Shown here piece after piece: positions 29,460 to 39,161 of a DNA stretch of 64,000 bases. This stretch comes from Escherichia phage ime09: sequence record NC_019503.1; one strand, written 5' to 3'. The number at the start of each line of letters is the position of its first letter. Within the stretch, counting starts at the first letter, position 1. Below the pieces are notes generated by a model. That model was given only the letters and a program-made list of their open reading frames with translations. It was not told where the DNA came from and searched no databases. The position numbers were made by a program, and so were the translations under genes.

Positions 29460-29933
29460 TTATTTGAATGATTTGACGTACTGAACAGAACCTTTGCTAT
29501 TCACGAAAGCGATTTTACCATTTTTGTTATACATGGTAGCAGTACGCTGATAGCCATAAGTTTGCTTACCAGATTGATAACCAACTAATGCGAAATTATC
29601 TTCGCCCATTTTATTCTGCTTAGCGCGAATGCGTTCATGGCCGTGTGCCATAAGAACCTTAGCATCACCAGTTGAAATTGATCTACGAGTTTTTTCATCT
29701 TCAACTGTATTAACAAAGTCGTCAAATGAATCAAATTTAGCATGGGATTTATTATACAGTTTTCCATCTACTGCATAATTATATCCCTGTACATCCATCT
29801 CAACTTCTGTACCATCATCCAATACAGCAGTGATTTTTTGACCTTTTTTAAATTTCAAAAGATCAGTAAAAGATTCAGCAATAATTTGAGAATTAATAGC
29901 TGCTTCAGTGATAAATTCTTGATATGTTTTCAT
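29460..29933 (-). CDS. Internal-protein-like (capsid targeting sequence) protein
   Basis: 157 aa beginning MKTYQEFITEA, the T4 internal-protein capsid-targeting motif; directly downstream of denV. Confidence 0.6.
   Translation of the reverse strand: MKTYQEFITEAAINSQIIAESFTDLLKFKKGQKITAVLDDGTEVEMDVQGYNYAVDGKLYNKSHAKFDSFDDFVNTVEDEKTRRSISTGDAKVLMAHGHERIRAKQNKMGEDNFALVGYQSGKQTYGYQRTATMYNKNGKIAFVNSKGSVQYVKSFK

Positions 29934-30417: not shown

Positions 30418-30418
<1 letters not shown>
30383..30418 (-). promoter_or_regulatory. T4-type early promoter (minus strand) for denV
   Basis: plus-strand tatagtatc (30386-30394) and gtaaac (30411-30416). Confidence 0.5.
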
Positions 30419-31220
<802 letters not shown>

Positions 31221-34628: not shown

Positions 34629-34958
34629 TTATTTCATATTATTGAAATATTCTTCTGCGATTTCGTCGTTATCATGGTAAACTTTAGAAGACAGTTTAAC
34701 ATAACCTTCTGCTGTAAACATGTTAATCACAACCTTTACAGTATACCACTGACCATCTTCATTACCCATTACTGCGTAAGTTTCAAACATCGGATGATCA
34801 GGACCGATAACTTTAATATCATTCACTGTACGACCGAAATCTTCTGAAACGCATTTCATAAAGAAGTTGAACAGTTCGCCGTAATTATCCATTTCATTCT
34901 CCAAGTGTTGTTTTTCTGTATCAGTAGTTGATAGTTGTATAGTACCATGGAAGAACAT
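34629..34958 (-). CDS. Hypothetical protein; true start probably internal (MDNYGELF, 34892) because promoter -10 lies inside the long ORF
   Basis: ORF track 109 aa; early promoter at 34934-34985. Confidence 0.45.
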   Translation of the reverse strand: MFFHGTIQLSTTDTEKQHLENEMDNYGELFNFFMKCVSEDFGRTVNDIKVIGPDHPMFETYAVMGNEDGQWYTVKVVINMFTAEGYVKLSSKVYHDNDEIAEEYFNNMK

Positions 34959-34985
34959 GGATGTAAACAGTTTTGTGAAAAAAGT
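34934..34985 (-). promoter_or_regulatory. T4-type early promoter (minus strand)
   Basis: plus-strand tatagtacc (34937-34945), tgtaaac (34961-34967), gttttgtgaaaa UP element. Confidence 0.55.
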
Positions 34986-35092
34986 TTTAGTGAATTCTAG
35001 GGCAGGGAGGGGCAGTTAAAGGATAGGATAATATATTATAAAGGGTAGAAACTAAATGATGCCTAGAGAGGTCCAGAAAGGCCTAGATGCCA

Positions 35093-35121
35093 AAAAGCCC
35101 TATCATTTAGATAGGGATTTA
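35093..35121 (-). terminator. Rho-independent terminator after IP-like gene 35125..35688
   Basis: CCCTATCtaaatGATAGGG hairpin followed by CUUUUU on minus RNA. Confidence 0.55.
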
Positions 35122-35124
35122 AAA

Positions 35125-35688
35125 TTATTTATCTAGTTTAGTTATTATAGCTTCTGCGGCAGCTTTTAGCTTAGATGCGGTGTTAATACGATTTTTAATT
35201 TCAGTATAAGCGTCGCCAAGAACATCAAGGCTATCAGAATAAACACTTACACTATTGCGTTCGCTATTTGAAATAGAACCTTTAGTTTTACGATCAAAAT
35301 CGGTGTACACGTCTTGAAGATCACGGGCTGCCTTCTTTGCATCATCCAATGCATCAAGAGCTTTATTCAAAGCATTAACGTATTTTTTAGTGTCGAACAT
35401 ATTCTTAGAAATTTTAACAGGTGCGCGTTCAGGAGTAGCTAACACAGATTTAGGAACCTGAGCGCCAGATGCCAATTTCTTAGAAATTTTGAAAAATGCT
35501 TTGTTGAATTTATTTTCTTGACTCATTGTAAAAGAACTATTATCGATGTTGTACATTTCAATAGCTTTAGCTTTCCACTTAAGAAAATCGCCGCGGTCTT
35601 TTGGGTCCAAGTGGAAAAATACTTTAGTAAGATCTGCTTCAGATGGTAATTTTGCTGCTTCGGTTAAAAATTCGGCATAGGTTTTCAT
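35125..35688 (-). CDS. Internal-protein-like (capsid targeting sequence) protein
   Basis: 187 aa beginning MKTYAEFLTEA; own terminator. Confidence 0.6.
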   Translation of the reverse strand: MKTYAEFLTEAAKLPSEADLTKVFFHLDPKDRGDFLKWKAKAIEMYNIDNSSFTMSQENKFNKAFFKISKKLASGAQVPKSVLATPERAPVKISKNMFDTKKYVNALNKALDALDDAKKAARDLQDVYTDFDRKTKGSISNSERNSVSVYSDSLDVLGDAYTEIKNRINTASKLKAAAEAIITKLDK

Positions 35689-35778
35689 TTAAAATCCTTG
35701 AAATAATTTATCGGTTGGTTATTAATTATTTATTACTTTGTTATTATCCGTAACAGCATTCTATATGTGATTCAAACT

Positions 35779-35806
35779 AAAAAGCCCCAACCTTTTGGTC
35801 GGGGCT
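35779..35806 (-). terminator. Rho-independent terminator after IP-like gene 35814..36287 (copy A)
   Basis: GCCCCGACCaaaaGGTTGGGGC hairpin followed by UUUUU on minus RNA. Confidence 0.7.
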
Positions 35807-35813
35807 AAGAATG

Positions 35814-36287
35814 TTATTTGATTTGTTTAGCAGACCAAATGCGGTCTTTAATAATTTTTTGGATGTCTTCAACATACTCAAGAGAGTGAACATGTGGGTT
35901 ATCTTTGAAACTATAAGCACGGGCTAACTTTTGGCCTTCGGTTTTGATTACTAAAAGCTCTTTAAGGATAGCTTCATATTTAGCGATAATTCCTTTAACG
36001 ATATTTTTTTCTTGTGCAGCTTTAGGATCTGCTTTAGGAGCAGGTTTACCCGAAGCCTTTGCAAAAGCAGCGCCAGTAGCAACTAAACTTTTCCAGGCCA
36101 TACTAACTGCATTTCCCGTAAATCCTTCTGCTTTCATGTCGCGAGCAAATTGGAATCGTGATTCGTCAGAAGCATCTTTATAGGAATATTTACCCGCTGC
36201 AATGGCTGCTTTTGCGACAGCTTGAATTTCGGTGCTAGATGCTTCATTTAACACCGCTTCATTTAAAAATTGAGCATATGATTTCAT
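35814..36287 (-). CDS. Internal-protein-like (capsid targeting sequence) protein
   Basis: 157 aa beginning MKSYAQFLNEA; late-promoter motif ~40 nt upstream; own terminator. Confidence 0.6.
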   Translation of the reverse strand: MKSYAQFLNEAVLNEASSTEIQAVAKAAIAAGKYSYKDASDESRFQFARDMKAEGFTGNAVSMAWKSLVATGAAFAKASGKPAPKADPKAAQEKNIVKGIIAKYEAILKELLVIKTEGQKLARAYSFKDNPHVHSLEYVEDIQKIIKDRIWSAKQIK

Positions 36288-36327
36288 CTTATTTCCTGTT
36301 TTAATTCGTGGATTTAATATACTACTA

Positions 36328-36335
36328 TATTTATA
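36328..36335 (-). promoter_or_regulatory. T4 late-promoter motif (TATAAATA on minus strand) upstream of IP-like gene
   Basis: plus-strand tatttata at 36328-36335. Confidence 0.5.
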
Positions 36336-36345
36336 CTAAAAAGCC

Positions 36346-36365
36346 CCAACCTTTCGGTCGGGGCT
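36346..36365 (-). terminator. Rho-independent terminator (copy B, near-identical to 35779-35806) ending the GC-rich noncoding segment
   Basis: GCCCCGACCgaaaGGTTGGGGC hairpin followed by UUUUU on minus RNA. Confidence 0.7.
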
Positions 36366-36369
36366 AAGC

Positions 36370-36676
36370 CTTGCGGCAACCTTGTCGGGGTTCCACCTGC
36401 TAAGGCAAGTGTTTGTACGAAACGCCGGGATTCGAACCCGGTTATTAAGCAGTTGACGCTACTCAATATTTTTAAAAGGCCATATCTCGACCATATCCGA
36501 ACGTTCCGTCAAAAACGCTACTCGGCTTACGGCAAAGATATTTCCTCGAATCGATAATTCTGTGCGCCGTTTCTGCTGTGATGTAAGGGGACATTAACAG
36601 ATCGTAAAGATTTGTTAATGCCAGTCCTTACCCAGGGAACATCAGTCCGACGACTTACCGGTAGCGACCCGGTTTC
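36370..36676 (-). ncRNA. Candidate stable structured RNA(s) adjacent to the tRNA cluster (possibly species-1/2-like)
   Basis: ~300 bp without any ORF of 60 aa or more, GC-richer than flanks, contains tRNA T-arm-like element CCGGG-TTCGAAT-CCCGG (plus 36424-36442) and ends at a strong terminator. Confidence 0.3.
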
Positions 36677-37027
36677 TTAATATTCTTTTAAAGCATCAAT
36701 CTGTTCACGGCGTTTACGCCATAAATCAATTACTTCATACGCAGATTCAGCATTTCGAATTGGACGGCATTTATATAAAGACTTGTGATTTTGATATTGC
36801 GTAGATAACGGAATTTTATCTAAAAGGTCTTTACGTTCAAAGTATTCGTAACCATCTAAGCCAAATGAACGATTTTTGAGAAATTGCCAATGACCATATT
36901 CGTTTTCGACATAAACATAATCCGCGTGTTGATAAAGCAAATTAATTACACGTTCAGAAATAACAGTGTCATTGTGATTAAAATAGAATGTCAAATCATG
37001 GACTACTAAATAAACATTACCTTTCAT
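36677..37027 (-). CDS. Hypothetical protein between tRNA-Arg and the candidate RNA region
   Basis: ORF track 116 aa; no recognisable motif. Confidence 0.5.
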   Translation of the reverse strand: MKGNVYLVVHDLTFYFNHNDTVISERVINLLYQHADYVYVENEYGHWQFLKNRSFGLDGYEYFERKDLLDKIPLSTQYQNHKSLYKCRPIRNAESAYEVIDLWRKRREQIDALKEY

Positions 37028-37043: not shown

Positions 37044-37119
37044 TGGTCGAGGCAGTAGGGATCGAACCTACGACCTAGGACTTAGAAGGTCCTTGCTCTT
37101 CCTTCTGAGCTATGCCTCG
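37044..37119 (-). tRNA. tRNA-Arg (anticodon TCT)
   Basis: Hand-folded cloverleaf on minus strand; anticodon loop CTTCTAA; CCA encoded. Confidence 0.85.
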
Positions 37120-38857: not shown

Positions 38858-38910
38858 GGTAATAGTATCACAACTAAAACCCTATGTAAACAACTTTGTG
38901 AAATTATTTT
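38858..38910 (-). promoter_or_regulatory. T4-type early promoter (minus strand)
   Basis: plus-strand aatagtatc (38861-38869), tgtaaac (38885-38891), UP cassette identical to the one at 39215-39240. Confidence 0.55.
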
Positions 38911-39161
38911 AAATCTTCTAATCGTTTCTTCATCTTAGAACCATTTTTAGCAATTTCTCCTGCATCGGAGCATAACGCTAAAAGTGCTTTAACTTTAGTT
39001 TGGTCTCCTTTAAAAGACGAAGGATCGACTGCAGCAGCAAGTTCTTTAATACGAGAGAAAAGACGCTCAGCTTCAGCTAAAGCCATTCCAAGCTTTACTT
39101 CCATACCGTGAGAAGATTCAGTGATAGTAGTTTTTGTAGCAAACTCTTTGAAAGTTTTCAT
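38904..39161 (-). CDS. Internal-protein-like small protein (ipI-position), paralog of 30418..30699
   Basis: 85 aa beginning MKTFKEFATK (CTS-like); located just downstream of 57B as ipI is in T4. Confidence 0.65.
   Translation of the reverse strand: MKTFKEFATKTTITESSHGMEVKLGMALAEAERLFSRIKELAAAVDPSSFKGDQTKVKALLALCSDAGEIAKNGSKMKKRLEDLK

Follow-up and report, generated by a model that had tools for sequence, protein, structure and literature searches.

Escherichia phage ime09 (NC_019503.1) is a T4-like phage of the genus Tequatrovirus, and we analyzed a 64,000-nucleotide stretch of its DNA, here called the window. Two genes on the minus strand are the subject of this work: P1 (36287..35814), an open reading frame (ORF) of 157 amino acids with the start MKSYAQFLNEAVLNEA, and P2 (35688..35125), an ORF of 187 amino acids with the start MKTYAEFLTEAAKL. 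The initial annotation of this DNA had reported two ORFs at 35125-36287 that carry the N-terminal signature of the T4 internal proteins (IPs), and the coordinates and N termini it quoted are exact. It had also placed the pair next to the tRNA cluster. The genes are not its direct neighbors: homologues of rnaD and rnaC (about 36419-36680) and an ORF at 36677-37027 lie between P1 and the tRNA-Arg at 37044. In the direction of transcription, the tRNA cluster is followed by this small ORF, rnaD/rnaC, a strong terminator, P1 with its terminator, P2 with its terminator, and e.8. The point at which P1 and P2 are inserted is the rnaC terminator, between rnaC and e.8. The 1.8-kb P1/P2 region is 96-98% identical to the corresponding DNA of Shigella phage ESh26, Escherichia phages UGKSEcP2 and PBM-1, and many others.

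In T4, the N-terminal capsid-targeting sequence (CTS) of an internal protein binds the scaffolding core, the protease gp21 removes it after a Glu, and the mature protein remains with the DNA and is injected along with it (PMC3012670, PMC9026906). The T4 N termini are MKTYQEFIAE|A in IPII and IPIII and MKTFKEF...ITE|A in IPI. P2 opens with the predicted CTS MKTYAEFLTE|A (35659..35688, minus strand), in which 7 of 10 residues are those of the IPII/IPIII sequence MKTYQEFIAE. P1 opens with the predicted propeptide MKSYAQFLNE|AVLNE|A (36243..36287, minus strand), where two L-x-E-Ala sites stand in tandem, after E10 and E15. The candidate cleavage motifs are LNE|A at residues 8-11 and 13-16 of P1 and LTE|A at residues 8-11 of P2. 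According to the IPIII CTS mutants of Mullaney and Black (summarized in PMC9026906), residues 4 and 7 act mainly in targeting, and residues 8 and 10 in processing. P1 and P2 both have Y4, F7, L8, and E10, followed by Ala. The initial annotation had proposed an alignment against T4 IPI, IPII, and IPIII; in it, the likeness is limited to the first 10-11 residues, with CTS positions 4, 7, 8, and 10 conserved.

We then counted this signature among the ATG-started frames of at least 40 amino acids in the window. The strict motif MK[ST][YF]x[EQ]F opens 5 of 589 frames, where 0.002 would be expected from composition. The remaining three, all on the minus strand, map to the two classical ip loci or next to them: an Ip4-like ORF of 157 amino acids (MKTYQEFITEAA; 29933..29460), a 93-amino-acid ORF that overlaps the end of the lysozyme gene e (30699..30418), and an Ip5-like ORF of 85 amino acids (39161..38904) that belongs to phrog_3499, "internal head protein." The counterpart of the Ip4-like ORF in Yersinia phage fD1 is g129, a particle-associated "Head protein." The 93-amino-acid and Ip5-like ORFs look like paralogues of each other (…IAKNGS.MK.RLE…), one per classical ip locus. 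The signature is also kept by distant relatives of P1 and P2. P0027, a relative of P2 at 31% identity, starts with MITFNEFLNE|SEMINE|A and has a double LxE site. Relatives of P1 in Klebsiella (Jiaodavirus) and Yersinia phages start with MKFKEFLAE|A and MLEYSEFLKE..., and an (L/M/F)xE motif ahead of "ASS.D" is conserved throughout the P1 family, including these Klebsiella and Yersinia phage homologues.

P1 and P2 are real genes under purifying selection. The ratio of nonsynonymous to synonymous substitution rates (dN/dS) of P1 is 0.076 against the copy in the Mosigvirus RPN187, with synonymous sites near saturation; for P2 it is 0.04 against RB14 and 0.03 against Shigella phage CT01. Between 14 and 66 synonymous differences stand behind these values of 0.03-0.08. 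A tblastn search found P1 in 510 phage records, with an intact ORF in at least 466, and P2 in 163, with an intact ORF in 163; about 126 records have both genes in tandem. For scale, the neighboring gene e.6 occurs in 1098 records, of which 500 reach at least 95% identity. The annotation is "hypothetical protein" in all 60 listed records per gene and in nearly all cluster members. There are two exceptions: the P1 relative of Klebsiella phage KPKp is called "Internal head protein," and one record has a spurious JGI name.

Each gene is accompanied by candidate expression signals of its own. Upstream of P1 is the canonical T4 late promoter motif TATAAATA (36335-36328, minus strand), 40 nt before the ATG; it comes directly after the first terminator and overlaps the T-tail of the rnaC terminator. 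The initial annotation had noted a late-promoter motif ahead of the second gene, and we find there the late-promoter-like sequence AATAAATA (35734-35727, minus strand), a match in seven of eight positions, 38 nt before the P2 ATG. Shine-Dalgarno sequences could be read at AGGAAA (36292..36297) for P1 and AAGGA (35695..35699) for P2, both on the minus strand. Since TATAAATA is not enriched across the window (13 found, 10 expected), only the position of the motif counts. AATAAATA also stands ahead of P2 in RB69 and of the P1-like gene in RPN187, and the T at -13 of late promoters is frequently an A in T4-like phages (Nolan et al., PMC1524935). We considered two other signals for P2 and rejected them: a sigma-70-like promoter (9/12 match) is no better than chance and is not conserved in RB14, and a MotA box is likewise no better than chance and is absent from RB14 as a conserved feature.

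On the minus strand, three terminators were predicted where shuffled sequences give 1.7. The one in the rnaC trailer, upstream of P1 (36365-36342), forms the upstream limit of the P1 cassette and has a 10-bp GC-rich stem and a folding energy of -20.3 kcal/mol (z -4.3). The P1 terminator (35806-35783) is similar in strength (-19.5 kcal/mol, z -4.9), and the P2 terminator (35116-35098) has a 7-bp stem (-10.5 kcal/mol, z -2.2). P1 is flanked by a 40-nt repeat whose copies are 93% identical; the left copy (36329-36368) holds the rnaC terminator, and the right copy (35770-35809) holds that of P1. A GenBank note on the RB51 copy of the gene describes it as "flanked by 34 bp imperfect direct repeat." Past the second terminator, the counterpart of the P1 promoter bases has decayed to TTTGAATC. 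The earlier description of strong, partly duplicated terminators at the ends of both genes needs correction in part: each gene does have its own terminator, but the duplicated pair consists of the rnaC and P1 terminators, and the hairpin after P2 is a different, weaker one.

A homologue of P1 has been reported from virions, in a dataset of low specificity (public as PXD026812). In Yersinia phage fD1 (phiD1), g140 is 97.5% identical to P1, and it is listed among the particle-associated proteins detected in purified virions using liquid chromatography-tandem mass spectrometry (PMC8309999, Table S3). If gp21 processes these proteins, its products would start with AVLNEASSTEIQAVAK or ASSTEIQAVAK in the P1 homologue and with AAKLPSEADLTK in P2.

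The predicted mature parts resemble those of T4 IPs in composition. Mature P1 (15.5-16 kDa) and P2 (19.7 kDa) have a pI of 9.5-9.6, a net charge of +7 to +8, 20-26 Lys, and no Cys; T4 IPI*, IPII*, and IPIII* have a pI of 9.0-9.65 and are likewise rich in Lys and free of Cys. The initial annotation had called the two cargo sequences unrelated. Indeed, BLASTP and a first profile comparison with hhalign gave no significant similarity between P1 and P2 past the first 10-11 residues. Other results speak against this part of the claim. Both proteins match the same PHROGs v4 family, phrog_2280, over their full length (P1, 1.7e-60; P2, 9.7e-54). With P0027 added, hhalign aligned the last helices, IKDRIWSAKQIK and IKNRINTASKLK, at a probability of 62% and an E value of 7.6e-5. 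The AlphaFold2 models of both have a common layout, in which a CTS helix and a small helical N-domain are followed, after a Pro/Lys/Ala-rich linker, by a long helical hairpin. In the P1 model (predicted local distance difference test [pLDDT], 73), the CTS/propeptide is followed by a three-helix N-domain (18-71), a Lys/Pro/Ala linker (76-87), and the hairpin (88-154); in the P2 model (pLDDT, 61), the CTS is followed by a small helical N-domain (17-73), a disordered linker (79-98), and the hairpin (100-186). Because they share one PHROG, the same predicted architecture, and a weak profile match, the cargos are probably not unrelated but distantly paralogous, and we do not treat their homology as established. 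The families of P1 and P2, which can be aligned pairwise at the CTS only, are both placed in phrog_2280. This PHROG has no category and its function is given as unknown, so annotation pipelines based on PHROGs are expected to label both genes as of unknown function.

Members of the P1 family have the N-domain in common across genera, while those from Klebsiella and Yersinia phages carry a different C-terminal part. Inside P2, two 23-nt direct repeats (35402-35424 and 35477-35499), spaced 75 nt, bracket the linker. Shigella phage CT01 (901-1389 of the extracted locus, L008) lacks P2 residues 71-95, which is an exact in-frame deletion of 25 codons between these repeats; the linker is thus dispensable. 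A phmmer search of P2 against 1.84 billion representatives returned a single distant relative, P0027, plus fragments. P0027 comes from a metagenomic contig (L010; Logan SRR28624380, 1419-2526) with a T4-like context and a Phage_30_3 neighbor, and the gene immediately downstream of it has ART-PolyVal/DUF3990 (ADP-ribosyltransferase-like) domains. Scans of P1 and P2 against Pfam and NCBIfam gave sub-threshold noise only, Foldseek, run with the P1 model on PDB and BFVD, recovered only the family of P1 itself, and sequence-profile searches of PDB with both families gave no match. We judged the P2 model, with its pLDDT of 61, too weak for a fold search. Function cannot be read from homology.

We then compared the rnaC-e.8 site among phages. 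It is empty in T4 and T2, has P2 only in RB14, P1 only in RB51, and both genes in the window; presence and absence of P1 and P2 are polymorphic among close relatives, as they are for T4-type internal proteins. The genes also occur in other genera. In RB69, a Mosigvirus, P2 is split by a frameshift into ORF149c and ORF148c (L005, 11429-11991). This split copy is a pseudogene or a sequencing error, and its nucleotides are 94.7% identical to those of the window despite the difference in genus. RPN187, another Mosigvirus, has a P1-like gene between the terminator copies, and Klebsiella phage KpV477 has a relative of P1 just downstream of its tRNAs. The block of rnaC/D, P2, and e.8 (34629-36676 in the window) is 94-96% identical to RB69, with the flanking e.6, ORF150c, and 57B at 75-80%. 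A block of such identity inside these flanks indicates recent exchange between genera, with rnaC/D, P2, and e.8 as a mosaic patch.

The junctions are informative as well. The single terminator in RB14 is chimeric, combining the left copy's loop with the right copy's tail. In T2, the bases that follow the rnaC terminator (TTTTTGGTATCTAGGCC...) are those that follow the P2 terminator in the window. The T-tail of the P2 terminator and the bases after it (GGGCTTTTTGGCATCTAGGCC) match the sequence directly after the rnaC terminator at the empty site of T2. These junction sequences fit a scheme of recombination at the hairpins. P1 and P2 act as self-contained promoter-gene-terminator cassettes that are gained, lost, and exchanged, even across genera, and that would move by recombination at the GC-rich terminator hairpins.

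This arrangement recalls the PeSL mobile regulatory cassettes of RB49/phi1 and the PeSL-like elements found at T-even IP loci (Arbiol et al., 2010; PMC2839356), in which a single accessory gene lies between repeated promoter/stem-loop elements. As with PeSL, a single chimeric element is present at the empty site, here the RB14 junction, and the cassettes are transcriptionally insulated. Unlike in PeSL, where the promoter is sigma-70-like or early, the P1/P2 promoter motif is of the late (gp55) type, and whereas the stem-loops described for the IP loci are AT rich, the stem-loop here is the GC-rich rnaC terminator. Given a late motif and no early promoter in the repeated element, we regard the P1/P2 cassette as an analogue of PeSL and not as a member.

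P1 and P2 share several properties with T4 IPIII, IPII, and IPI: an N-terminal CTS that ends in an L/I-x-E-Ala cleavage motif, and a small, basic, Lys-rich, Cys-free, and nonessential product that is variably present among T-even phages. At 177 amino acids, mature P2 is near the size of IPIII* (183 amino acids). In other respects they differ. Past the first 10-11 residues they share no similarity with the T4 proteins; a late-promoter motif precedes them where the T4 ip genes have early-type promoters; and their cassettes end in GC-rich terminators. They are predicted to be all-helical with two domains, whereas IPI*, as solved by nuclear magnetic resonance, has N- and C-terminal helices on either side of two beta sheets (PMC3012670). 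Bas37_0260 is a comparable case: it too is a previously unannotated T-even accessory protein with the same N-terminal signal and a sequence unrelated to Ip1-3. Unlike P1 and P2, it resides in the classical ipI locus, and its target, McrBC, has been demonstrated. Position is the other difference from T4, where ip genes lie beside 57B or e. IP genes are described from two hyperplastic loci, beside 57B/ipI or e/ipII-ipIII (PMC2839356, PMC12373910), which Silas et al. (2025) call "the two Ip loci." P1 and P2 are outside both, between rnaC and e.8; we take the published positions to be a habit of the IP family, with no mechanistic requirement behind them. Judged from sequence, the rnaC-e.8 site would be a third IP locus. 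We also searched the literature by ORF name (RB32ORF132c and others) and found nothing. P1 and P2 are new, or at least unrecognized, candidate internal proteins; they may have been listed earlier among the "more than 30" IP variants (Comeau, 2007).

In our proposal, P1 and P2 add two members to the T4-type internal head proteins, and their genes occupy a third ip site, which lies between e.8 and the terminator of rnaC; we put the probability of this at about 0.75. The initial annotation had offered them as CTS-bearing internal-protein candidates, and the CTS positions, the LxE-Ala sites, the basic mature parts, the late motifs, the polymorphism, and the detection of the fD1 homologue all fit. 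Since the critical CTS residues are conserved, both proteins are likely to be packaged, processed, and injected by the T4 route. Each gene would be transcribed late from its own gp55-type promoter, and the 10-residue CTS would bind the scaffolding core as the prohead assembles. Cleavage by the prohead protease gp21 would follow, after L-x-E: at E10 in each protein and, in P1, probably at E15 too. The freed basic protein would stay in the head with the DNA and be injected with it.

Once in the cell, the likely job of these proteins would be to neutralize a first-response host defense, probably a subtype of type IV restriction enzyme. All CTS proteins of known function inhibit type IV restriction, and an anti-defense role is for this reason our best guess, purely by analogy, at even odds or somewhat less. 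The enzyme blocked by Ip1 is GmrSD-CT596, by Ip2 GmrSD-ECOR21, and by Ip3 GmrSD-ECOR17, and these proteins do not cross-protect (PMC12373910); Ip3 is required for growth on ECOR17 (eLife/bioRxiv 10.1101/2022.04.14.488369), and Bas37_0260 blocks McrBC (bioRxiv 10.1101/2025.11.20.689424). A more far-reaching version, which we find doubtful, would make phrog_2280 one superfamily of two-domain helical IPs in a late-promoter, terminator-bounded third locus, with the cassette moving among Tequatrovirus, Mosigvirus, and Jiaodavirus and its products hitting a defense other than GmrSD or McrBC.

Several observations weigh against our proposal. Virion data were located for the P1 homologue and none for P2, and cleavage and injection are inferred. 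The particle-associated set of fD1 took in 113-137 of 277 gene products, including DenV, lysozyme e, and NudE; since it contains clearly nonstructural proteins, the detection of g140 is weak evidence. The promoter motif of P2 matches in only seven of eight positions, and the RB14 version, GATAAATA, has G first. Neither gene has a GTTTAC promoter of the early type found at T4 ipI, ipII, and ipIII. As for an anti-defense role, searches by PDB sequence and family, and by fold for P1, gave no structural or sequence link to known anti-restriction proteins, and the very low dN/dS is unlike what a point-mutational arms race should leave. Moreover, ten other ip genes examined by Silas et al. (PMC12373910) lacked a target in 15 GmrSD groups, where ip4-10 had no partner, so that an IP need not be a type IV inhibitor.

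That last result also speaks for a more general function. P1 and P2 could be packaged and processed and then serve in charge neutralization, condensation of the packed DNA, or help with ejection, with no specific host target. Both mature proteins are basic and rich in Lys, and in T4 heads only the Lys residues of internal proteins were seen to contact DNA phosphates (PMC3012670); strong purifying selection and a conserved helical hairpin would suit a housekeeping task as well. Yet the genes are dispensable and patchy, both being absent from T4 and T2, a pattern usual in host-range accessory genes. The four CTS proteins of known function all inhibit specific defenses, and the predicted folded two-domain architecture suggests specific binding. 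We consider a purely generic role unlikely. It is less probable still that P1 and P2 are cytoplasmic accessory proteins that never enter the head and whose CTS-like start is a by-product of copying the 5′ end and ribosome-binding region from ip genes. Three observations favor such copying: a 42-nt direct repeat of CTS-coding DNA plus leader is 76% identical between P1 and P2, T-even ip loci shuffle through conserved flanks (PMC2839356), and the locus is outside the two recognized ones. Against this, the motif is kept at the protein level across genera and at a divergence down to 31% identity, with all four functionally critical CTS positions conserved. The 10-residue CTS of IPIII by itself is enough to package GFP and other foreign proteins (PMC9026906). 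Both promoter motifs are of the late type, and virions were reported to contain the homologue of P1. Finally, the idea that one or both ORFs are chance open frames could appeal to the "hypothetical" annotations and to the frameshift that splits P2 in RB69. It is effectively refuted by the dN/dS values, by the many intact ORFs, by the Shine-Dalgarno sequence, promoter motif, and terminator at each gene, and by the mass spectrometry peptides of the P1 homologue. Our preferred explanation remains that P1 and P2 are internal head proteins.

The surroundings of the two genes differ somewhat from those in T4. The tRNA cluster (37875-37044, minus strand) has ten tRNAs (Gln, Leu, Gly, Pro, Ser, Thr, Met/Ile-CAU, Tyr, Asn, and Arg), compared with eight in T4. 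The Asn and Tyr tRNAs are extra relative to T4 and are shared with RB14 and T2; the segB insertion is absent from the cluster of the window. The small ORF of 116 amino acids (37027-36677, minus strand; phrog_3355, RB69ORF150c-like) separates tRNA-Arg from rnaD, which in T4 directly abuts tRNA-Arg. Rfam 15 has no model covering rnaC or rnaD, and we therefore placed their homologues and the trailer (about 36680-36419, minus strand) by alignment to T4. They are nearly identical to T4, with 88% column identity over the whole alignment, which includes flanks past the end of the T4 slice. The rnaC part has a tRNA-like T-arm, GGTTCGAATCC. Downstream of P2 and its terminator is e.8 (34958-34629). Elsewhere in the window, two TATAAATA motifs, 13 nt apart, are found at 31198-31218 (minus strand), just upstream of the lysozyme gene e (30696-31184).

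Injected internal proteins are the first countermeasure of the phage inside the cell. Work from 2022-2025 paired Ip2, Ip3, and Bas37_0260 with one specific type IV restriction system each. P1, in about 500 phage genomes, and P2, in about 160, are common and intact, are annotated as "hypothetical," and lie outside the loci searched for ip genes. Recognizing them adds candidates for anti-defense screens and for predicting the host range of therapeutic T4-like phages. Their case would also show that IP cassettes are able to insert at a GC-rich terminator. If the reading of a third locus with its own helical superfamily is true, it would contradict the published confinement of IP genes to two loci.

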